NCBI GenBank assembly: GCA_963825005.1
Contig: CAWGRP010000007.1
Location: forward strand, 104,045 to 168,044
Reading direction: 5' to 3'
Source: an uncultured delta proteobacterium
Lineage (GTDB): Bacteria; Desulfobacterota; Syntrophorhabdia; Syntrophorhabdales; WCHB1-27
DNA length: 64,000 bases
Part shown: piece after piece, positions 30,504-54,643 of the stretch
How positions within the stretch are numbered: the stretch's first letter is position 1
How the letters are laid out: the number at the start of each line of letters is the position of its first letter
Made by a program: the position numbers and the translations under genes
The notes under the pieces: model-generated
What the model was told of the DNA's origin: nothing
The model's database searches: none
The model's input: the letters and a program-made list of their open reading frames with translations, nothing else

Positions 30504-31649
30504 TCAGAGCAATGCGTTTTTGATACGGTCAAGGGCTTGAACCAATCTTTTTCTCTGGCAGGCAAAGTTGAGCCTCAGAAAACCCGCGCCTCCCTTTCCA
30601 TATTCGGCACCGTCATTGAGCGCGACTCTTGCTTCCTTGAGAATATAGTCGAACGGGTCTGCGGCTATCCCCGCATTCCTGCAATCGAGCCAGGCGAGAT
30701 AGGTCGCCTCCATCTTCTTCATCCGTATGCCGGGAAAATATTTTTCCACATATTGCATCAGAAAATCTCTGTTCCCTTCAAGATAGCGAAGCGCCTGATC
30801 GAGCCACTCCTGTCCGTCTCTGTAGGCTGCCAGTGTGGCTACAAGGCCCATGATATTCACGTGCGGTATCAACCCCTCACTTCCAGCAATCCACTTTCTG
30901 CGCAAGGAGTCATTCCTGATGACGGCAAAGGCGCATCCGAGCCCCGGTATATTAAACGTCTTGCTGGGGGCCATGAGTGTAACCGTTTGGGCCTCCACTT
31001 CCGGTGCCAGAGTAGCAATGGGTATGTGACGATATCCGGGATAGATGAGATCGCAATGAATCTCATCCGAGCAGATGATGATATTGTGTCGCAGGCAGAT
31101 CCCGGCAAGCTTCTCCAGCTCTTTTCTCGTAAAGACGCGGCCGACCGGATTGTGCGGGTTGCACAGAATAAAGATCTTTGTTCGATCCGTAATCGCTTTC
31201 TCAAATGCATCAAAGTCGATCTCGTACGTATCCTCTTTCTCTATCAGCTGCGAGCTAATTACGGCCCGGCCGCGACGGAGAGGATCGCGGTGAAAATGAC
31301 CATAAACCGGTGTCTGGACCAGAACTTCGTCGCCCGGTCCGGCGTATACCTGAAAAGCAAGATTGAGTGCTGAAACGACGCCGGGCAGGTAGATTATCTC
31401 TTCTTCTCTTACCTCCCAGCCATAGAGGCTCTTGAGCCGTTTCTGGATAGTAAACCCCAACTCCGGCGAAGGACGGGTGTATCCGAATACGCCATGATCG
31501 ATTCTCTGACGGAGCGCCCGGATAATCGGTTCTGCTGAAACGAAATCCATATCCGCAACCCACAACGGAATAACATCATCACCATACGCCAACCATTTGT
31601 GACTGTCGGTGTCTTTGCGATCTATTTCCTGATCAAAATCATAGGTCAT
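30504..31649 (-). CDS. MalY/PatB-type PLP-dependent C-S lyase (class I/II aminotransferase fold)
   Basis: MTYDFDQEIDRKDTDSHKW N-terminus, SPSKTFNIPGL PLP-lysine region. ATG 31649 is preferred over TTG 31694, which lies inside repeat B1. Confidence 0.85.
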   Translation of the reverse strand: MTYDFDQEIDRKDTDSHKWLAYGDDVIPLWVADMDFVSAEPIIRALRQRIDHGVFGYTRPSPELGFTIQKRLKSLYGWEVREEEIIYLPGVVSALNLAFQVYAGPGDEVLVQTPVYGHFHRDPLRRGRAVISSQLIEKEDTYEIDFDAFEKAITDRTKIFILCNPHNPVGRVFTRKELEKLAGICLRHNIIICSDEIHCDLIYPGYRHIPIATLAPEVEAQTVTLMAPSKTFNIPGLGCAFAVIRNDSLRRKWIAGSEGLIPHVNIMGLVATLAAYRDGQEWLDQALRYLEGNRDFLMQYVEKYFPGIRMKKMEATYLAWLDCRNAGIAADPFDYILKEARVALNDGAEYGKGGAGFLRLNFACQRKRLVQALDRIKNALL

Positions 31650-31688
31650 GCTTCCGTCCTGTTCATCTATATTGTTATTTAAAAGTCC

Positions 31689-31932
31689 AGACAAGGCTTT
31701 TTCATCGCCGATAAAAGCTGATAAGGGCTATGATGAACGCCGATAAGATATTTTGACCGCCTGTGTGATACAGCGCCACAGCCGGTCAACCCCGATCCGC
31801 TTCGCGGACGGTGATACTCTCGCGGGAGCGACGGGGTGTGGACAGCATTGATGTTGTATCAGAATGCTGTCCACCGGCAAACCCATCTGCGTACATCTCT
31901 CTTTGCTCTTATCTGCGTACATCTGCGATAAA
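31689..31932 (-). mobile_element. family-B structured element, copy B1
   Basis: The reverse complement starts TTTATCGCAGATGTACGCAGATAAGAGC and ends TTTATCGGCGATGAAAAAGCCTTGTCT. It contains the hairpin GTGGACAGCATT...AATGCTGTCCAC and the hairpin GACCGGCTGTG...CACAGGCGGTC. Confidence 0.8.
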
Positions 31933-32032
31933 TTCTTCTTTTCAGGCCCTTAATCTTATCACAACCTGCCGATGCTTCTCATATTGATCAGACGGAAGGG
32001 CCGTAAAGCGCACAACCAGCTTTCTCAATTGC

Positions 32033-32071
32033 AGCGCGCTGATGACGAGCAGCGTTATCGGCGCGCTTTTT
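32033..32071 (+). terminator. intrinsic terminator with no annotated gene upstream on its strand
   Basis: An 11-bp stem AGCGCGCTGAT / ATCGGCGCGCT (one G-U), a 13-nt loop, followed by TTTT. The reverse strand has no U-tract. Confidence 0.6.
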
Positions 32072-32210
32072 GCCGTCCGCACTTGACAAGATAAGGTAAG
32101 CATCAATACATTGAGGAAGAGCTTCTTATCCCAAAAGCAGATGAGGACGTGCGCCTATAGTCAGCCCGAAGCCGCTAAAAAGGTATGACATTGCGGAGGA
32201 GGTCTCTCAG

Positions 32211-32555
32211 ATGCTCAAGATCAAGAGAATGTACGACGGCGCTTCTGCGCAGGATGGGGCGAGGATATTGGTCGACAGGCTCTGGCCGAGAGGGATAAAG
32301 AAAGAACAGGCGGCCATCGACGACTGGCTGAAGGAACTCTCTCCCAGCGATTCCTTGAGAAAATGGTTCGGCCACGATCCGTCCAGGTGGGTTGAATTCA
32401 AGAGAAGATACAAGAAGGAGCTGGAAACGAAACAGGAGATTATCGAGCAGCTCAGGAAACACGCGCAGCACGGGACGGTTACCCTGCTCTATGCGGCGAA
32501 GGATACTGACCACAATAACGCGGTTGCTCTCAAAGAGGTCCTCGAGGTCGAATAA
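32211..32555 (+). CDS. DUF488 (YeaO-like) protein
   Basis: MLKIKRMYDGASAQDGARILVDRLWPRGIKKEQAAIDDWLKELSPSDSLRKWFGHDP is the canonical DUF488 N-terminus. Confidence 0.85.
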   Translation: MLKIKRMYDGASAQDGARILVDRLWPRGIKKEQAAIDDWLKELSPSDSLRKWFGHDPSRWVEFKRRYKKELETKQEIIEQLRKHAQHGTVTLLYAAKDTDHNNAVALKEVLEVE

Positions 32556-33571
32556 TGGAATCTTTGTATAAACTTCTCGCTGCCATCGGATATCTACACC
32601 CAATCCATCCCGCAATCACACACCTGCCCGTCGGAATAGTGATCGGCGCCTTCCTGCTGGGCATAGTATCGCTCCTCGTTCACTCTCCGATGGCCGGCCG
32701 GGCTGCGCGTTACTGCATGATCATTGCGTTAATTTCCATATTCCCTACGGTGCTCTTTGGGTACATGGACTGGCAGCACTTTTACTCAGGGGGGTGGCTG
32801 AACCCGATAAAGGTTAAGATGGTATTAGCGGGAGTCCTGCTGGTTGTGGTCACCATATCCCTTGTGGTCGGTAGAGGTAATGAAAGAACTTCATTACCGG
32901 TCGTAGGCATAAACTTTCTCACCCTACTTACCGTGCTGGGACTCGGATTTTTCGGCGGTCAACTCGTTTACTCAGGGAGGGTTCCTGCGGGTCCGGCAGA
33001 ATTCCGGGGTGGCGAAAAGCTGTTCCATGCCAATTGCAGCGGCTGTCACCCATACGGGGGGAACATAGTTGACCCGAAGGCAGAGCTCCGGGGCTCGGAC
33101 GAGTTGAAAGACTTGCAGACGTTCATCCGCTGGATACGAGACCCGAGACTCGACAACGGCGCCAAAGGCGTCATGCCGCCGTTCCTCCAATCCAGGGTTT
33201 CTGACACGCAGGCGAAGGAACTGCTCGGGTACATTATCAAGGTGATGGGACCGGCGAAGCCGGCCCCTGCGTGCGATGTCGCTATTCCCACGATTGCGGT
33301 GAGGACAGAACCGGCAAGCGTTGCGAAAGGGAAGCAGCTCTTTGAGGCAAACTGCATGTACTGCCACAATGTGCTTGGCACCGAGACGCTTGTGGGCCCC
33401 GGCCTCAAGGGAATATTGAAACGGAAAACGTTTCCGTTCGGCGATTGGCCCGCAATTCCGGAGAATATTTTCAAACAGCTCCGGTGCCCGTATGCAGAGA
33501 TGCCCTCATTCAGAGAAAAACTGACGGATGATCAGGTATTCGATCTGATCGCCTTCCTGAACACACAGTGA
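32555..33571 (+). CDS. membrane-anchored dihaem cytochrome c with N-terminal DUF2231-like domain
   Basis: HPIHPAITHLPVG plus about four TM helices, then two CxxCH haem motifs (CSGCH, CMYCH). ATG shares a base with the DUF488 stop (TAATG). Confidence 0.8.
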   Translation: MESLYKLLAAIGYLHPIHPAITHLPVGIVIGAFLLGIVSLLVHSPMAGRAARYCMIIALISIFPTVLFGYMDWQHFYSGGWLNPIKVKMVLAGVLLVVVTISLVVGRGNERTSLPVVGINFLTLLTVLGLGFFGGQLVYSGRVPAGPAEFRGGEKLFHANCSGCHPYGGNIVDPKAELRGSDELKDLQTFIRWIRDPRLDNGAKGVMPPFLQSRVSDTQAKELLGYIIKVMGPAKPAPACDVAIPTIAVRTEPASVAKGKQLFEANCMYCHNVLGTETLVGPGLKGILKRKTFPFGDWPAIPENIFKQLRCPYAEMPSFREKLTDDQVFDLIAFLNTQ

Positions 33572-33871
33572 TGCCAAGTTGGCCTGATCCGCATTCCTTC
33601 CGGGCACCCACTTTTGGGTGTTCCTCCTCGCGCTCCTCCTGCCACCCGTGGCTGAGAGGTTTTCGCCCGATGGAAAGAGCGCTGCCCACAGGTACCCGGC
33701 GAAAGCAGGTCATCGTCGCCTCGGATTGCAGATGAATCCACTTGGCATAATTTGCCAGAGTTTCTGAATGTGCGGAATTTTGACCTCGGAATTCCTTGTA
33801 ACTTCAGAATGTTTTCGATAAAATAGCCGGAGCGACTCTCCATTCAAATCTCCTCCCGAAGAGGCACGACT

Positions 33872-34609
33872 ATGGACCTGAGTGGTCATACTGCGTTAAT
33901 AACCGGAGCGGGTCAGGGCATTGGCAGGGCATGTGCCGAAGCGTTTGCACAGAGAGGAGCCGACCTCGTTCTTCTCGACAAGAATAGACAGACTCTTCCC
34001 GCGGTGGCTCAAACACTTGCCGGCAAAGGCTGCACAGTGATCGCCCATGTGATCGATCTGACCCGCATACGATCTCTTGAGGTCCTCATCGAAAAAATAA
34101 AGCGTAAGACAGCGATTGATATCCTGGTAAACAATGCCGGGTTCGATGAGCCGGGCGTCACGTCGAAGATCGATAAGAGCCGATTCGATGCAGTGCTCGG
34201 GATTCATGTGGGCGTGCCGTTCATGCTGATAAAGCTCTTGCTTCCACAGATGCGGGCGAGAAAATGGGGACGCATCGTCAACATCAGCTCTGTCTACGGA
34301 CTATCCGGAGCAAAAGGTGAAGCTGCCTATTCAGCGGCAAAAGCGGCAGTTATCGGATTGACGAAGACGGCTGCGAGGGAAGGCGGGCCTGACAATGTAA
34401 CCGTGAATGCAGTTGTTCCCGGGCTTATTCGCACGCCGACCATCGAAAAGATGCCGGAGAAATACAGGCTTCCGATAATTGAGCAAACGTTGCTCGGAAG
34501 GATCGGCGAAGCAGAAGAAGTTGCACGCGTTATCGCCTTTCTTGCATCGGAGGATGCGTCTTACATAACCGGGACAAGCATCACCGTCTCCGGCGGTTGG
34601 GGTATTTGA
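33872..34609 (+). CDS. SDR family oxidoreductase (FabG-like)
   Basis: TGAGQGIG, NNAG and YSAAK catalytic motifs; 245 aa. Confidence 0.9.
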   Translation: MDLSGHTALITGAGQGIGRACAEAFAQRGADLVLLDKNRQTLPAVAQTLAGKGCTVIAHVIDLTRIRSLEVLIEKIKRKTAIDILVNNAGFDEPGVTSKIDKSRFDAVLGIHVGVPFMLIKLLLPQMRARKWGRIVNISSVYGLSGAKGEAAYSAAKAAVIGLTKTAAREGGPDNVTVNAVVPGLIRTPTIEKMPEKYRLPIIEQTLLGRIGEAEEVARVIAFLASEDASYITGTSITVSGGWGI

Positions 34610-34622
34610 GAGGAGCATGTAG

Positions 34623-35102
34623 GTGACAAAGCAGAGTGCCGGACTTCTGATGTATCGAAAACGGAAGCAGTCTATTCAGGTCCTGCTGATACACCCGGGA
34701 GGTCCTTTCTGGGCAAAGAAGGATCTTGGCGCCTGGTCTATGCCCAAAGGAGAGTTCGGCCAGGAAGAAGACGGGCTGAAGGCAGCCCGACGCGAGTTTG
34801 AGGAGGAAACAGGTTCTCTGCCGACAGGCCGGTTCTTTCGACTTGGCGCAGTGAAACAGCCCAGCGGTAAGGTAATCCATGCATGGGCTTTCGAAAGTGA
34901 CCTGGACGCCAAGAAGATCAAGAGTAACACCTTCTCTCTGGAGTGGCCTCCTCAGTCAGGCAAGCAACAGGAATTTCCTGAAGCCGATCGGGCGGAATGG
35001 TTCGACATCGATGTTGCCAGGGAGAAGATCATAACAGGACAGCTCGAGTTTATCGACGAATTGCTGCGCGTTCTTGAATCCGACCCTCCGGAAGCAGCAT
35101 AA
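34623..35102 (+). CDS. NUDIX hydrolase
   Basis: Nudix box GEFGQEEDGLKAARREFEEETG; GTG start. Confidence 0.85.
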   Translation: MTKQSAGLLMYRKRKQSIQVLLIHPGGPFWAKKDLGAWSMPKGEFGQEEDGLKAARREFEEETGSLPTGRFFRLGAVKQPSGKVIHAWAFESDLDAKKIKSNTFSLEWPPQSGKQQEFPEADRAEWFDIDVAREKIITGQLEFIDELLRVLESDPPEAA

Positions 35103-35124
35103 TGAGCCGAAGCGACAAAGAATC

Positions 35125-35363
35125 TTTATCGCAGATGTGCGCAGATAGAAGCCAAGAGAGATATACGCAGATGGCGTTTGACCGTGTCCAGCATTGTGAT
35201 ACAACGTCAATGCTGGACACACTCCGTCGCTCCCGCGAGAGTATCACCGTCCGCGAAGCGGATCAGGGTTGACCGGCTGTGCCGCTCTATCGCACAGGCG
35301 GTCAAAGATAAACTATCCGCGCTTATCGTAGTAGCCCTTATCCGTCTTGATCTGCGATGAAAA
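35125..35363 (+). mobile_element. family-B structured element, copy B2
   Basis: Starts TTTATCGCAGATGTGCGCAGATAGAAGCC. Contains the 13-bp hairpin 35184-35220 and the hairpin 35271-35303. Ends CCCTTATCCGTCTTGATCTGCGATGAAAA. Confidence 0.8.
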
Positions 35364-35400
35364 TTCTTTGTTTTGGCGTCTGTAGGAACAGGAGTGAGCA

Positions 35401-37182
35401 GTGAACGGAGCAGAGCTTCTGGTTGGAACCGCCCGCGCACTCGGTATTGACGTCTGTTTTGCGAACGCGGGCACAACCGAAATACCGATCGTAATGGCGC
35501 TTGATACAGTGAAGGGGATCAGGGCTATCCTCGGGATCTTTGAAGGTGTCTGCACAGGCGCTGCAGACGGATACGGACGGATGACCGGCAGACCGGCCAT
35601 GGCACTTCTGCATCTGGGTCCGGGATTTGCGAACGGCATCGCAAACTTGCACGACGCGCGAAGAGCTGCTACGCCTCTCGTCAATGTTATCGGTCAGCAT
35701 GCTACATGGCACCAGAGCGCAGATCCACCACTCGCGATGGACATCGAGAGCCTGGCCCGCACCGTGTCGGGTTGGGTGCGGACGAGCACATCGGTGGAGA
35801 AACTTTCCAGAGATATGAACGATGCGATCAACGCATCTCTTTTTGGACAGGTGTCGAGTCTCATTGTCCCCCATGATCTTCAACTGGCTGACGCCATGGA
35901 CAACGGTATAGACCTCACGCCTTTCTCGTTCGCGCCGGTCAATGCAGATGTGATCGATAAGGCGGCACGACGGATTCGGGCGGCACAAAAATCGGCATTG
36001 CTTCTCGACGGAAGGGCGCTGAGCAAACCCGGCCTGCACGCTGCTTCACGCATAAGAACGAAATGCAAGTGCAACCTTTTTGCACCTTCCTTTTTTTCCT
36101 GCATGGAACGCGGTGTGGGTTTGCCGGACGTGCAGCGCATCCCCTATTTTCCTGAAGAGGCTATATCTCTTTTGTCCGGCTATGATCTTGTAGTGATAGT
36201 CAATGCGCACGAGCCGGTGACCTTTTTTGGTTATCCCGGTGTTCGGGGTCATATCTTGAGTGACCAACAGCAGAAGCTCTATCTGTGTGAAGGAAGAGAA
36301 GATCCGGTTGAGGCACTTGCTGCCCTCGCCGACGCGCTCGATGCTCCGACCTCACCTGTTCCTGAGAGACCTTCGCCCCGCGCAGCGCTTCCTCATGGCG
36401 CGCTCACAGCAGAGAAGGCTTGTCTCACGGTTGCAGCCATCCAGCCGGAACAGGCAATCATTGTGGATGAGGGGATCACCAGCGGTTTTACTTTTTATCC
36501 GCTCACCGCATTCTCTCCCCCGCACACGTTCCTGACTATCGCGGGAGGTTCAATCGGATACGGGATGCCGTGTGCTACAGGTGCTGCCATTGCGTGCCCT
36601 GATCGCCCCGTGATCAATTTTCAGGCAGACGGAAGCGCCCTGTATACAGCCCAGGCCCTCTGGACACAGGCAAGGGAAGGATTGCACGTCATCACTTTAA
36701 TCTGCTCCAACAGGAGCTATAATATTCTCAAGCTGGAGCTTTCCCGTGCAGGCCTTACATCCTTTGGAGATAATGCCAGGAACCTGACAGAGCTGGATGC
36801 TCCCCCCATCGATTGGATCAGCCTTGCGCGGGGCTTTGGTGTGCCTGCCACGTCCGTCGATACTGCGGAGCGACTTGCGCAGGAGCTGGCCGCAGGTGTG
36901 GCAGAGCCCGGCCCGAGGCTCATCGAGATGGTACTGCATGTAAGACGATTTTTATCGCAGATGTACGCAGATAAGGACGAAGAGAGATGTACGCAGATGA
37001 GTTTGACCGTGTCCAGCATCGCGATACTGCGGCAATGCTGGACACAATTCAGTCGCTCCGCGCAAGGGTGTCACCGTCCGCGAAGCGGCTGCGGGTTGAC
37101 CGGCTGTGGCGCTGTATCACACAGGCGGTCAAAAATTGTATCGGCGTTTATCGTAGCCCTTATCAGCTTTTATCGGCGATGA
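35401..37182 (+). CDS. thiamine pyrophosphate-dependent enzyme (acetolactate synthase large-subunit-like), with its 3' end running into repeat B3
   Basis: N-terminal TPP-pyrimidine domain and C-terminal GGSIGYGMP...QADGSALY...N TPP motif. A family-typical end (...PGPRLIEMVL) is reached near 36935, but the frame stays open for ~77 further codons inside B3. Confidence 0.8.
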   Translation: MNGAELLVGTARALGIDVCFANAGTTEIPIVMALDTVKGIRAILGIFEGVCTGAADGYGRMTGRPAMALLHLGPGFANGIANLHDARRAATPLVNVIGQHATWHQSADPPLAMDIESLARTVSGWVRTSTSVEKLSRDMNDAINASLFGQVSSLIVPHDLQLADAMDNGIDLTPFSFAPVNADVIDKAARRIRAAQKSALLLDGRALSKPGLHAASRIRTKCKCNLFAPSFFSCMERGVGLPDVQRIPYFPEEAISLLSGYDLVVIVNAHEPVTFFGYPGVRGHILSDQQQKLYLCEGREDPVEALAALADALDAPTSPVPERPSPRAALPHGALTAEKACLTVAAIQPEQAIIVDEGITSGFTFYPLTAFSPPHTFLTIAGGSIGYGMPCATGAAIACPDRPVINFQADGSALYTAQALWTQAREGLHVITLICSNRSYNILKLELSRAGLTSFGDNARNLTELDAPPIDWISLARGFGVPATSVDTAERLAQELAAGVAEPGPRLIEMVLHVRRFLSQMYADKDEERCTQMSLTVSSIAILRQCWTQFSRSAQGCHRPRSGCGLTGCGAVSHRRSKIVSAFIVALISFYRR

Positions 37183-37195
37183 AAAAGCCTTGTCT
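36951..37195 (+). mobile_element. family-B structured element, copy B3
   Basis: Starts TTTATCGCAGATGTACGCAGATAAGGACG and ends TTTATCGGCGATGAAAAAGCCTTGTCT. Same hairpins as B2. Confidence 0.8.
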
Positions 37196-37264
37196 TGAGA
37201 AGCGGGTGGTGACTGACAGTTGTCGCAAAGTTTACATAACTCCATAGCGACATTGGAGGAGAAG

Positions 37265-38047
37265 ATGAAAGAGATGATCGATCAGGCAGCCGAATGGATC
37301 GCACACGCAAAGGCGGTTGTCGTGTTTGCGGGAGCCGGCCTCAGCACCGAATCGGGAATACCTGACTTCAGGAGCCCCGGAGGCGTATGGGACCGGTACA
37401 ATCCCGAAGATTTCTATTTCCAGAACTTCCTTGCCAGCGAAGCGTCCAGAGAGAAATACTGGCAGATGGCAACCGAGATGTATGAGCCCATGAAGAAAGC
37501 CCAGCCTAACGCGGCCCACCTGGCAATCGCCGAGCTCGAAATTCTGGGCAAACTTGATAGCGTCATCACGCAGAATATAGACGGGCTCCATCACAAGGCC
37601 GGCAATTCGGAAGGAAAGATCATCGAGCTTCACGGCACTGCCACCTATGTCTCCTGTTTGAGCTGCAAGAAAAGATATGACCGCGATGCCATTCAAGAAC
37701 GAGTACGCAAAGGTGAGAAGGCTCCGCGCTGCGACAGTTGCGGCGGTTTACTCAAACCCGCCACGATCTCCTTCGGACAGGCAATGCCGGAGAGGGAAAC
37801 AGAAGAAGCGTACCGACGGTCCGCAGCGTGCGATCTCTTCATTGTAGTCGGTTCGTCGCTCGTGGTTCAGCCGGCAGCGTCAATGCCGCTTATTGCAAAA
37901 CGGAGCGGCTCAAAGCTCGTGATCATAAACCGCGACGAGACGCCGCTGGATGATCTCGCCGATCTTGTGATACGCGGGCAGGCCGGCCCGGTGATGGCGG
38001 CCATTCTCGAGGTAACCAAAAAGAGAATGAGGATAGGCCTCGCGTAG
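37265..38047 (+). CDS. cobB: NAD-dependent protein deacylase, SIR2 family
   Basis: GAGLSTESGIPDFRS, QNIDGLH and HG motifs, and a Zn ribbon CLSC...CDSCGG. ATG 37265 is preceded by GGAGGAG. Confidence 0.88.
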   Translation: MKEMIDQAAEWIAHAKAVVVFAGAGLSTESGIPDFRSPGGVWDRYNPEDFYFQNFLASEASREKYWQMATEMYEPMKKAQPNAAHLAIAELEILGKLDSVITQNIDGLHHKAGNSEGKIIELHGTATYVSCLSCKKRYDRDAIQERVRKGEKAPRCDSCGGLLKPATISFGQAMPERETEEAYRRSAACDLFIVVGSSLVVQPAASMPLIAKRSGSKLVIINRDETPLDDLADLVIRGQAGPVMAAILEVTKKRMRIGLA

Positions 38048-38048
38048 G

Positions 38049-38110
38049 AGTCAGACCGCTCCGCTAGGAAGAGGGAAGATCGCGCTACGCGCTAGGAAGA
38101 TGGAAGAAGG
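38049..38110 (-). repeat. family-C repeat, copy C2
   Basis: The reverse complement is CCTTCTTCCATCTTCCTAG-CGCGTAGCGCG-ATCTTCCCTCTTCCTAGCGGAGCGGTCTGACTC. It starts 2 nt after the sirtuin stop. Confidence 0.75.
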
Positions 38111-38152
38111 AAATCTAAACCTACCAAACGGGATCGTTCGCAGTTTGCAGTG

Positions 38153-38210
38153 GCTTCCTAGTCACGCGGAGGCGTGACGGTCTTCCTAGCGGATGAAATG
38201 AGCGGTCTTC
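38153..38210 (+). repeat. family-C repeat, copy C3 (shorter)
   Basis: GCTTCCTAG-GTCACGC GGAG GCGTGAC-GGTCTTCCTAGCGGA...GAGCGGTCT. Inverted relative to C2, about 40 nt away. Confidence 0.65.
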
Positions 38211-38227
38211 TTAAGAGGGAGCGCGTT

Positions 38228-38797
38228 ATGATTAAAGACCTTATCAAGGCAAACAGGAGTCACAGGAGGTTTCAACAGGACAAGCCAATAGCGCACGAGG
38301 TATTGAGGGAGCTTGTTGGCTTGACTCGCCTCGTAGCCTCGGCGCAAAATCTGCAGCCGCTAAAATACATTCTCTCCAGCACACCCGAAAAGAATAATCT
38401 CATTTTCACTTGTCTGGGGTGGGCAGGATATTTGAAGGACTGGCCCGGGCCGGTACAGGGCGAACGGCCGGTCGCCTACATAATCATCCTGGGCGACAGG
38501 GAGATCACCCGAAACTATTATTGTAATGATGGCATCGCTGCTCAAACCATGCTTCTTGCGGGAGTTGAACTCGGATTGCGAGGATGCATGATCGCCAACA
38601 TTCAGCGAGAAAAGCTACGGGCCGCACTCAGCATCCCGGAAAAGTATGATATCCTGCTTGCCATAGCGTTGGGCTATCCCAATGAAACAGTGGTCATCGA
38701 GGAAGTGAAGGACGGGGACATCAAGTACTGGCGGGACGAGAAGGGCGTGCACCACGTGCCGAAGCGCAGTCTCTCACAAATCATCCTGGATCTTTAA
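38228..38797 (+). CDS. nitroreductase family protein
   Basis: MIKDLIKANRSHRRFQ N-terminus typical of the family; 189 aa from ATG 38228. The track start at 38174 lies in repeat C3. Confidence 0.85.
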   Translation: MIKDLIKANRSHRRFQQDKPIAHEVLRELVGLTRLVASAQNLQPLKYILSSTPEKNNLIFTCLGWAGYLKDWPGPVQGERPVAYIIILGDREITRNYYCNDGIAAQTMLLAGVELGLRGCMIANIQREKLRAALSIPEKYDILLAIALGYPNETVVIEEVKDGDIKYWRDEKGVHHVPKRSLSQIILDL

Positions 38798-39010
38798 CAC
38801 CACTCTCCGGATCTTTCTGCCCACGCTGTACAGCACTGAATCAAAAGATGGCGAGCACTGCCTGCGCGCAGGAACCAAGGCTTCGGCATCCGGCCTCATT
38901 TACAAAGGCACTTTTAATGTTTATGAATATTCCAAGGTGCGATGGAGATAGAAGACAGACAATATTTACGAAAAGGCTGACGGATGGGACGTCCGACTCG
39001 AGAATAAGAT

Positions 39011-39262
39011 CTTATCGCCGATGTACGCAGATAAAGGCCAAGAGAGATATACGCAGATGAGTTTGCCTGTGGACAGCATTGTGATACAGCGTCAATGCTG
39101 TTCATCCACCCGCACGCGGGTACCCGGTCGCTCCCGCGAGACTATCACCGTCCGCGAAGCGGATCGGGGTTGAACGGCTGTGCCGCTCTATCGCACAGGC
39201 GGTCAAAGATAAACTATCCGCTCTTATCGTAGTAGCCCTTATCCGCTTTAATCTGCGATAAA
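39011..39262 (+). mobile_element. family-B structured element, copy B4 (with extra internal hairpin)
   Basis: Starts CTTATCGCCGATGTACGCAGATAAAGGCC and ends CCCTTATCCGCTTTAATCTGCGATAAA. The hairpin-1 3' arm carries a 4-nt bulge, and an inserted ACCCGCACGCGGGT hairpin follows. Confidence 0.8.
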
Positions 39263-39285
39263 GGGGCTCTGAGGCAAGAGGGTAT

Positions 39286-39974
39286 ATGAAAAAGCATGCG
39301 GCACAGATTGTAGTCCTTTGCGTTCTGATCGCATTTATTGTGGCTATCAAGGTGTCCGGCGCCGGCAGCTATCTCACGATTGAGAACCTGCGACTGCATA
39401 AGGAACAGCTGGAACAGTTCATCAGTTCTCACTACAGCTTTTCCGTTCTTATCTACCTTTCAACCTATTTTGTTGTAGTGGCGTTTTCTCTCCCCGGCGC
39501 TACCGTGCTGACGCTGGCAGGTGGTTTTCTCTTTCATCTTTTCCCTGGTGTCATTTATGTGAATATTGGAGCGACAGTCGGGGCCACGTTCGCCTTTCTT
39601 CTATCCCGGTACATATTGGGAAATGCGATCCAGCGCAAATACGGGGCGCAGCTCGCGAGGTTCAACAAGGAACTCAATGAGAACGGCCATTTTTACCTTC
39701 TCTCCGTTCGGTTCATCCCGGCATTTCCTTTCTTTGTCATCAACATCCTTTCAGGACTGACAAACGTCCCGCTCTGGACCTACGTATGGACCACGTGCAT
39801 CGGCATCATGCCGGGATCTCTCGTTTACACGTTCGCCGGCAGCCAACTGGGAGACGATAAACTCAGTACGGATCTGTTTACGGGGGAAGGATCCTGCTCG
39901 CCTTTCTTTTGCTCGCAGCCCTCACGCTCGTTCCGCTGGTAATAAAAAAGGTTCGGGCAAGGTCCGCCCATTAA
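39286..39974 (+). pseudogene. TVP38/TMEM64 (DedA/SNARE-associated) family membrane protein, 3' end frameshifted
   Basis: Colinear with the paralog 39998..40684 up to ...FAGSQL. The remaining ETINSVR / DLFTG / RILLAFLLLAALTLVPLVIKKVRARSAH* can only be read by switching frames between 39848 and 39890. Confidence 0.75.
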
Positions 39975-54157: not shown

Positions 54158-54643
54158 ATGAAGCGTTTCATGGCAGGGATCTTTGCTGTTGACAAGGGAT
54201 TATACGTCGTTGCCGGGGTTGTACTGGCGTTTATGATCGCGTTGACCTTCTGTGATGTCATCCTGAGGAATTTCCACCATCCTATTACGGGATCCATGGA
54301 ATTGATACAGTACGGAGGCTCTATCGTATTCGGATTTTCGATTCCTTTTGGTACCCTGCTGGGCGCCCAGATAATTGTAGACATTGCAACGGATAAGCTG
54401 ACCCCCGATGCGAAACGCATCGTAAACATAATCACCAGGATCGTAGGAATTCTCCTCTTTCTGTTTATTGCCTATAATTTCTACCTGTATGGTATTGACG
54501 TGAGGCATTCAGGTGAACGTACGGCCAGCTTTAAAGTGCCGTACTACCCATTCAGCTTCGCTCTCTGCTTCAGCTTTATCTTACAGAGTTTTACAATATT
54601 TTGTGACCTCGTAACAAAAATAAGGGGAACAGACAATGAGTGA
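54158..54643 (+). CDS. dctQ: TRAP transporter small permease
   Basis: MKRFMAGIFAVDKGLYVVAGVVLAF..., 4 TM. GGTGGAGG RBS before ATG 54158. Confidence 0.88.
   Translation: MKRFMAGIFAVDKGLYVVAGVVLAFMIALTFCDVILRNFHHPITGSMELIQYGGSIVFGFSIPFGTLLGAQIIVDIATDKLTPDAKRIVNIITRIVGILLFLFIAYNFYLYGIDVRHSGERTASFKVPYYPFSFALCFSFILQSFTIFCDLVTKIRGTDNE

Follow-up and report, generated by a model that had tools for sequence, protein, structure and literature searches.

Four copies of a dispersed repeat, which we call family B, lie in a 64,000-nucleotide stretch of the genome of an uncultured delta proteobacterium of the Syntrophorhabdales (C7:104045-168044 in our contig numbering; this whole stretch is hereafter the window), and each of them ends a short distance in front of a start codon on its own strand. 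The question raised by this locus is what such a repeat is doing there. A preliminary description of the four copies considered a mobile 5' leader, an outward promoter or terminator module, and a binding platform for a single regulator. [quoted passage not shown] Judging from shared modules, it is also likely to be a gene-less member of a superfamily of elements with arms built from short repeated words, whose gene-bearing members enclose a small GxxExxY (PD-(D/E)XK-like) gene.

Polarity of family B across the genome

The preliminary description cautioned that with four copies the arrangement could be due to chance, and indeed four of four has a chance probability of ~0.06 and is not significant on its own. 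As a check, it proposed a genome-wide census of orientation and of distance to the downstream start. Using an nhmmer profile search of the 6.17-Mb genome (G000; 34 contigs, 53.6% G+C), we found 87 full copies of family B, 233-297 nt long, and 34 partial copies, located on more than 20 contigs. Genes outside the window come from a home-made codon-usage caller, which is crude (75% coding density), and single distances should be read as approximate. Beyond 15 nt, the flanks of the copies are unrelated in 85 contexts, so the copies can be treated as independent sites.

The polarity in this census is far from random. The downstream gene is co-oriented with the element in 75/85 full copies (p = 1.9e-13), and in tandem gene contexts 62 full copies are in sense and 3 in antisense (p = 2.5e-15). 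When both neighbors are within 120 nt (<=120 nt), the count is 45 tandem sense to 0 antisense, and the partial copies in tandem contexts are also mostly in sense (14 to 1).

The same census locates the copies relative to the genes on both sides. The upstream gene is co-oriented in 69/85 full copies, and in closely flanked copies the upstream stop codon is mostly 5-52 nt from the 5' anchor of the element, with the downstream start 21-91 nt from the 3' anchor. Because the copies are as near or nearer to a co-oriented upstream stop, we conclude that they fill spacers within operons. Seven copies lack a co-oriented downstream gene and are placed after a gene, opposite a convergent one, and the 13 copies in divergent spacers are mostly closer to the gene that they point at. 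The idea of a mobile 5' leader therefore stands as far as the mobile, dispersed module is concerned, but falls on being specifically 5', given the 69/85 copies that follow a co-oriented gene and the seven without a co-oriented gene downstream. The rule of placement is that the sense strand is the one transcribed, not that the element is positioned in front of a gene.

Family B occupies the different kinds of spacer in much the proportions of the genome background (tandem, 76% of copies vs 79% of the genome; divergent, 15% vs 11%; convergent, 8% vs 11%), and it is the polarity alone that is special. The leading strand, as determined from GC skew, carries 61% of the genes and 61% of the elements, and the strand switches between neighboring copies in 30/67 cases. 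Replication-coupled transposition of single-stranded DNA, of the IS200/IS605-like kind, was considered as a cause of the polarity and rejected because the elements track genes and not GC skew.

The copies in the window

The four copies in the window, delimited by repeat finding and alignment, are 235-265 nt long. In what follows, TPP stands for thiamine pyrophosphate.

B1: 31687..31936, minus strand; nhmmer match C7:135731-135980 (-), score 290.9, and alignment; in a divergent spacer, 39 nt 5' of the aminotransferase start at 31649, with the divergent DUF488 gene starting at 32211
B2: 35115..35377, plus strand; between the NUDIX stop at 35102 and the TPP-enzyme start at 35401; terminal inverted repeat reaching ACAAAGAATCTTTATCGCAGAT / ATCTGCGATGAAAATTCTTTGT
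B3: 36948..37199, plus strand; with the TPP-enzyme gene on its 5' side and the SIR2 gene, which starts at 37265, on its 3' side
B4: 39007..39274, plus strand; 23 nt 5' of 39286, where the first VTT/TVP38 gene starts, and 213 nt past the nitroreductase stop at 38797

The 3' ends of all four copies are 23-69 nt before a co-oriented start codon, as had been described. With the element ends used in the preliminary description, its distances are reproduced exactly: 39 nt (31649), 37 nt (GTG at 35401), 69 nt (37265) and 23 nt (39286). By Pfam, the neighboring genes encode an aminotransferase, a DUF488 protein, a cytochrome c protein, a short-chain dehydrogenase/reductase (SDR), a NUDIX protein, a TPP enzyme, a SIR2 protein, a nitroreductase and two VTT/TVP38 proteins. 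The genes directly downstream of the copies are:

30504..31649, minus strand: class I/II aminotransferase gene, first described as a PatB-like lyase, downstream of B1 (PF00155, E = 9e-44)
35401..37182, plus strand: TPP-dependent enzyme gene, with B2 and B3 on either side (PF02776, PF02775)
37265..38047, plus strand: SIR2-family deacetylase gene, downstream of B3 (PF02146, E = 3e-51)
39286..39942, plus strand: VTT/TVP38-domain membrane protein gene, downstream of B4 (PF09335)

The Pfam domains of the TPP enzyme stop at residue 509 of 593, and its C-terminal ~80 codons are translated element. The open reading frame (ORF) is without the stop of its orthologues (~36935) and runs through B3 to a TGA at 37180-37182, in the terminal GCGATGA. 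Either the C terminus is really extended or the assembly is wrong by one base.

Two other repeats were observed in this region. B4 holds an extra 29-nt insert at 39107-39135, with a small palindrome, ACCCGCACGCGGGT; inserts of this type, at 97% identity, are found on many contigs of all five congeners introduced below, with ~10 in G000, 4 of them inside family-B copies. The spacer between the SIR2 and nitroreductase genes (38048-38227) contains a different dispersed repeat with ~17 more matches in G000 and many in the congeners.

Insertion history and stem conservation

We compared G000 with five congeners (G001, G002, G003, G004 and G005), all of which keep the order SDR-NUDIX-TPP-SIR2-nitroreductase-VTT at 74-83% DNA identity. 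There is no family-B copy at the B2 and B3 sites in G001, G002, G003 and G005. The spacers at these two sites in G005 are 58 and 94 nt, and the TPP ORF of the relatives ends, with B3 absent, at ~36935 of the window. Since the same syntenic operon exists without B2 and B3 in four congeners, these copies are insertions into a pre-existing operon. Exact insertion points were not obtained from alignments of filled and empty sites, as the intergenic DNA is too diverged.

Family B is present in ~6 copies in G001, ~6 in G002, ~4 in G003 and ~19 in G004, and there are none in G005. Fifteen of the relatives' copies could be mapped, 8 at sites that are occupied in G000 and 7 at sites that are not. Derived variants are common to orthologous copies, an example being TATCACAGATG, which is found both in G004 and in G000 at C9:54130. 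Five orthologous pairs were compared column by column: the difference is 8-26% in paired and 24-50% in unpaired columns, and it is 31-53% at third codon positions in the genes beside two of these pairs. In copies shared between species, stem positions thus change 2-4x slower than unpaired positions or flanking third codon positions, and the five pairs contain 13 double compensatory changes in which pairing is kept. Within G000, the median pairwise identity of the copies is 76%, and nine copies have a neighbor at >=95%. Family B is old, with some recent activity, and its stems are truly constrained at fixed loci.

Other elements occupy the same spacers in the relatives. At the B3 site, four of them have a different short word dyad, with GTCTATTTAGTCT words (orthologous to 36930-37265), and at the B2 site G004 has a different 226-nt element with GGAAGAT words (orthologous to 35100-35400), so these spacers have been reused by different 'dialects' of word dyad.

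Architecture, folding and coding capacity

The family-B element, ~235-255 nt long, is built as a 5' arm, four hairpins (H1, H2, H3 and H4) that form the core, and a 3' arm. Each arm consists of three CGCAGAT words spaced ~10 nt apart, or about one helical turn, direct in the 5' arm and inverted in the 3' arm. The imperfect terminal inverted repeat is 26-30 nt long (TTTTATCGCAGATGTACGCAGATAAAAGC / GCTTTTATCCGCTCTTATCTGCGATGAAAA). H1 is a 13-bp hairpin with a conserved loop, H2 and H3 are short, and H4 has 12 bp. In B2, the parts are located as follows:

35125..35174, plus strand: 5' arm, with three direct CGCAGAT words ATCGCAGATG, TGCGCAGATA and TACGCAGATG
35184..35220, plus strand: H1, 13-bp stem with UGUGAUAC loop, followed by the linker and H2
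35268..35304, plus strand: H4, TTGACCGGCTGTG...CACAGGCGGTCAA
35318-35362: 3' arm, three inverted words that pair with the words of the 5' arm

The consensus fold is -121 kcal/mol and has covarying pairs in H1 (77/107, 78/106 and 80/104), H2, and H4 (167/187, with CG 49 and AU 37; 168/186, with UA 63 and GC 22; and 169/185). The loop sequences of H1 and H4 are conserved, and the closing stem has ~33 predicted pairs with bulges between them. B2 folds at -110.6 kcal/mol in sense (z = -6.8) and at -116.5 in antisense (z = -8.6). When counted in cells, G.U pairs exceed A.C mismatches by 195 to 97, which is suggestive. Family B has ~52% G+C.

The element has no coding capacity. A hidden small ORF, open in the consensus between the word-1 ATG and the TGA within GCGATGA, was tried and rejected, as its frame is kept in only 16/83 copies and the length modulo 3 is random. 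A Rho-type compositional asymmetry was likewise rejected, the GC and AT skew of the element being ~zero.

About 35 family-B copies carry an optional 21-nt module, GTGCGCAGCCTCCTGTAAGGG (e.g., G000:C9:54149-54169 and 54344-54364), at three preferred offsets, ~+50 and ~+77 in sense and ~+245 in antisense. Three copies carry the module in each of their arms, and their closing stem is lengthened. Both inserts are found in the copy at G000:C9:54130 and are lacking from its G004 orthologue.

Family C and the GxxExxY cassettes

With a more sensitive profile and core-only matches, we found in G000 a sister family, family C, which has 22 full copies with CACAGAG words and the same hairpin plan, with H3 in one to three tandem copies (examples are C13:591339-591596 and C19:281002-281230). 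Family C shows a sense bias as well, of 14 to 7 over all copies and 11 to 2 among closely flanked ones. G000 has a single GxxExxY gene, which (TIGR04256, E = 1e-45; C13:592743-593108, minus strand) is inside a dyad with family-C arms. For ~115 nt, through its arm, H1 and H2, this cassette matches family C, and over that length homology between the two is clear. The leader of the cassette shares with family B the linker CACACTCCAGCGCTCCGCGCA, 21 identical bases, plus an equivalent H1 hairpin, and the H1-H2 module appears to be common to family B, family C and the cassette leader. The family-B hidden Markov model gives a weak match at the cassette site in a genome-wide search (E = 0.9 over 34 nt).

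Word-armed cassettes are found in G000, G001, Betaproteobacteria bacterium GR16-43 and Mongoliibacter, and there are other GxxExxY cassettes with CGCAGAG or CGCAGAA words. The GxxExxY gene of G001 is truncated and is enclosed by a word dyad. In GR16-43 (CP019169:3757900-3758950), one GxxExxY gene is enclosed by 3+3 CGCAGATGAA words in a complete cassette. One arm consists of AAGGCGAAAGGCGTTTTGTC followed by three CGCAGATGAA words and the other arm is its inverse; the last word contains the start codon of the gene, which lies in sense between two co-directional genes. A four-helix-bundle gene of the type found in 23S intervening sequences is enclosed in G000 by a dyad of GACGGATGA words. On a wider scale, a 22-nt pattern of the family-B end was found at 18 loci in ~six phyla, with <1 expected by chance, and CGCAGAT decamer arrays with a 10-nt period occur 3-36 times per genome in five distant genomes (0-1 for a reversed control), all five of which have GxxExxY genes. 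The 8-kb loci around the cross-phylum matches to the end pattern have no GxxExxY gene, and the link is seen only by whole-genome search.

GxxExxY cassettes (TIGR04256 / PF13366) are like family B in that inverted arrays of short words, of the same CGCAGA type, surround a payload. The difference is that the cassettes carry a gene, whereas family B is gene-less and its payload is the four-hairpin core. The ORF-bearing intervening sequences of 23S rRNA, with their four-helix-bundle S23p protein, can be grouped with the GxxExxY cassettes as a likeness. We came across no study of how GxxExxY cassettes move or what they do. Because the same words with the same 10-nt period form the arms of GxxExxY cassettes in other phyla, the CGCAGAT words look like recognition sites at the ends of the element, not operators for a regulator of the downstream gene, and among the factors that might recognize them GxxExxY is the foremost candidate.

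An 11-kb island at a contig end (G000:C29:448500-459653, L057) holds small paired genes that resemble toxin-antitoxin modules, named by eye, interleaved with at least ten family-B fragments. The pairs are HicAB-, VapBC-, AbrB/PIN-, DUF433- and nucleotidyltransferase/HEPN-like, and the island also has a four-helix-bundle gene (Pfam, NCBIfam).

Proposed mechanism

Family B has the features of a MITE in that it is small (<600 bp) and non-coding, with many dispersed copies, terminal inverted repeats and insertion polymorphism. In the mechanism that we propose, copies have inserted in the short spacers of existing operons and in 5' or 3' untranslated regions, and persist almost only where the RNA polymerase of the operon reads the 'sense' strand. 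Given this persistence in sense polarity, the copies are most likely co-transcribed and would then fold as RNA, the paired word arms closing the four-hairpin core and folding the insert out of the mRNA, with the operon left intact. Mutations that open the stems would be removed by host-level selection against an unfolded insert, and such removal would explain the stem conservation at fixed loci. That a single polarity survives may be due to a harmful feature on the opposite strand, or insertion itself may be polar relative to transcription. The family may be mobilized by the GxxExxY protein or by another word-recognizing factor.

Several results weigh against this interpretation. No target-site duplication was found in 85 copies compared with shuffled pairings, using 3-9-nt k-mers at offsets of 0-24 nt per side, although this is a weak negative because old copies may have lost short duplications. 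A search for an autonomous partner found no longer unit bounded by family-B ends; the only gene-bearing relative is a GxxExxY cassette, and GxxExxY is not a known transposase. Copy number and the presence of GxxExxY do not go together (the gene is missing from G004, with its 19 copies, and present in G001, with 6), and a large share of the copies may therefore be relics that no longer move. The GxxExxY cassette of G000 appears to be antisense to its called neighbors. The mean fold of the 87 copies is -110.8 kcal/mol in sense vs -109.3 in antisense (p = 0.07-0.11), and the excess of G.U over A.C is not significant when counted by positions (21 vs 18) or by changes between orthologues (19 vs 11). 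From the sequence we can read neither RNA over DNA as the selected form nor the reason for the lack of antisense copies. A cause at the RNA level or linked to transcription is what the polarity argues for, although sequence by itself is not proof of it.

Alternative explanations

We ranked the rival explanations by weight in the order RNA-processing or stability module, DNA-binding platform, promoter or terminator, and integron attC site. The first of these, which we consider unlikely, is that family B is a domesticated RNA module whose sense transcript would be a functional intercistronic RNA. By analogy with the intervening sequences of 23S rRNA, it might be a processing or stabilizing site for RNase III (or another enzyme) that splits operon mRNAs into pieces each with its own stability, or it might be released as a structured RNA of ~170 nt that acts in trans. 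The strict sense polarity would fit such a module, as would the conservation of stems at orthologous loci across species far past the neutral proxy, the conserved loop sequences of H1 and H4, and the bulged closing stem, which at ~33 pairs is the kind of substrate that RNase III uses. Family C also folds slightly better in sense (19/22 copies, p = 0.003). However, family B shows no significant difference between sense and antisense folding and no significant G.U excess, and most copies are lineage-specific, with congeners running the same operons without them. There is also no Rfam family match at the gathering score, and at E <= 10 only two chance-level matches to snoRNA models (E = 1.7 and 5).

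A bolder possibility, and to us a doubtful one, is that the transcribed element is itself the active entity, either as an RNA-level mobile or self-insulating module or as an excised structured RNA that would work with the nuclease-like GxxExxY protein; the strict sense polarity and the conservation of stems between species would then be due to this activity. A metabolite riboswitch had been argued against in the preliminary description on the basis of functionally unrelated downstream genes, and we agree: 114 of the ~170 flanking proteins are singletons, Rfam has no match, and congeners have the same operon without the element.

We find it very unlikely that family B is a DNA-binding platform, in which the CGCAGAT words would be iterons through which a DNA-binding protein, for example a regulator or a nucleoid protein, would control the genes next to them. 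Three direct and three inverted words with ~10-nt spacing, and the same words with the same period in several phyla, are what such a platform might look like, but a site on duplex DNA has no reason to follow transcription at 62:3, and the neighboring genes are functionally unrelated. In addition, the words are terminal in mobile units and in GxxExxY cassettes, a position that fits recognition of ends better than operators.

The position of each window copy shortly upstream of a start codon would fit an outward promoter or terminator module, which would give the downstream gene its own transcription start or insulate it from upstream transcription, but we regard this as highly improbable. In a scan that covered the sigma-70-type consensus, other promoter types being outside it, none of the four copies has a promoter-like or intrinsic-terminator-like consensus site, and the counts across the region are about those expected from shuffling, so this proposal of the preliminary description was not supported. 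The consensus has no U-tract after any hairpin, and orthologous operons with spacers of 58-94 nt have no element.

Integron attC sites are usually 57-141 nt long. An integron-like reading, with attC-type recombination sites for repeats and mobile cassettes for the genes that they enclose, can be dismissed as extremely improbable, in spite of repeat-gene-repeat arrays (e.g., B2-TPP-B3, and four copies in C9:49.7-54.4 kb), repeats co-oriented with genes, an IntI-like gene at C19:360246-361164 and the fragment-rich island of toxin-antitoxin-like pairs, which are named by appearance only, because the intervening genes are syntenic in congeners without the repeats, so that genes stay while repeats come and go, and also because the copies are spread over more than 20 contigs, the element at ~240 nt is above the usual attC size, its ends when read directly are ...TTTTATCGCAG and CTGCGATGAAAAG, with no RYYYAAC/GTTRRRY and no AAC/GTT cores, and the IntI-like gene is interrupted by an internal stop, with no array of copies beside it. 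That gene is in two pieces (201 and 205 bits vs TIGR02249), split by an internal TGA or a frameshift.

Comparison with known elements

Among the closest described elements that we know of for a MITE-like reading of family B is Chunjie, a MITE of Geobacter uraniireducens Rf4, which is 178-235 bp long with ~21-bp terminal inverted repeats and folds at about -98 to -130 kcal/mol (PMC3184786, PMC10969869). As far as these reports describe it, Chunjie is present in dozens of intergenic copies plus partials and can insert in an operon without breaking it (PMC3184786, PMC10969869). Family B is alike in size, in its inverted repeats (26-30 nt vs ~21 bp), in its fold energies (mean of -111 kcal/mol) in its dozens of intergenic copies and partials and in its insertion in operons that stay unbroken, and both hosts belong to anaerobic lineages formerly classed as deltaproteobacteria. 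In those descriptions, Chunjie has 9-bp direct repeats and is A+T-rich, whereas family B has no direct repeats and ~52% G+C. Strict sense polarity, word-built arms and a GxxExxY link characterize family B, and none of these is reported in the descriptions of Chunjie, by which alone the two were compared.

Mycobacterial interspersed repetitive units (MIRUs) are 40-100-bp direct repeats. They resemble family B as small mobile repeats between operon genes with one fixed orientation to transcription. MIRUs act via a short ORF within the repeat, whose translation is coupled to that of the downstream gene, in contrast to the 240-nt palindrome of family B, in which frame is not conserved. A MIRU-like coupled repeat was accordingly rejected, as the distances to the stop and the start also vary (5-52 and 21-91 nt). 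MIRUs apparently have little effect on the expression of neighboring genes (PMC12548453).

REP elements, bacterial interspersed mosaic elements (BIMEs) and REPINs, which RAYT transposases mobilize, and bacterial MITEs of the Correia and enterobacterial repetitive intergenic consensus (ERIC) type are like family B in being dispersed, hairpin-forming, non-coding intergenic repeats. They are co-transcribed with their neighbors, as family B most likely is. REPs are 20-40-nt units tied to a RAYT gene, and we know of no description of Correia or ERIC elements as polarity-locked. A RAYT partner (Y1 transposase, PF01797) for family B was rejected: G000 has 4 weak matches, G004 has none with 19 copies, and G005 has five with no copies.

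Dyads of heptamers or other word repeats, such as the GGGAATC/GGGGAYT heptamer repeats of Xanthomonas and Nostoc (PMC4692102) and the TAACTGA repeats of Beggiatoaceae (PMC4679880), are like family B in that they are intergenic arrays of short words, often in convergent inverted pairs. Such dyads are reported to be 28 nt from the upstream ORF and 160 nt from the downstream one, and so closer to the former, and the Xanthomonas repeats are without sense bias, 30% being on the same and 35% on the opposite strand (PMC4692102). Unlike family B, the Xanthomonas repeats are pure tandem heptamers with no conserved structured core. A literature search for the family-B word sequences gave no matches. What is new in family B relative to MITE- and REP-like repeats is the strict sense lock, the lack of a target duplication, the word-built arms and the GxxExxY link.

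Implications

A sense rule of 62:3 is unusually strict for a bacterial palindromic repeat. For the window itself, the analysis removes a false lead, in that the repeats are not regulators of the aminotransferase, TPP-enzyme, sirtuin and TVP38 genes. It also bears on annotation, as such elements make false ORF extensions like the ~80 repeat codons on the TPP enzyme. If the transcribed element were the active entity, ~100 operon transcripts would give rise to a structured RNA that might, for example, be a cofactor or a target of GxxExxY, and the word-armed cassettes would be an undescribed, phylum-spanning class of transcription-dependent selfish elements. GxxExxY is a very common family of small 'hypothetical' genes, and the modules shared with family B and family C hint at what its protein may target. 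Together, stem conservation and the tie to GxxExxY provide a testable handle on the origin of the word-repeat hairpins that are found in the operon spacers of many phyla.

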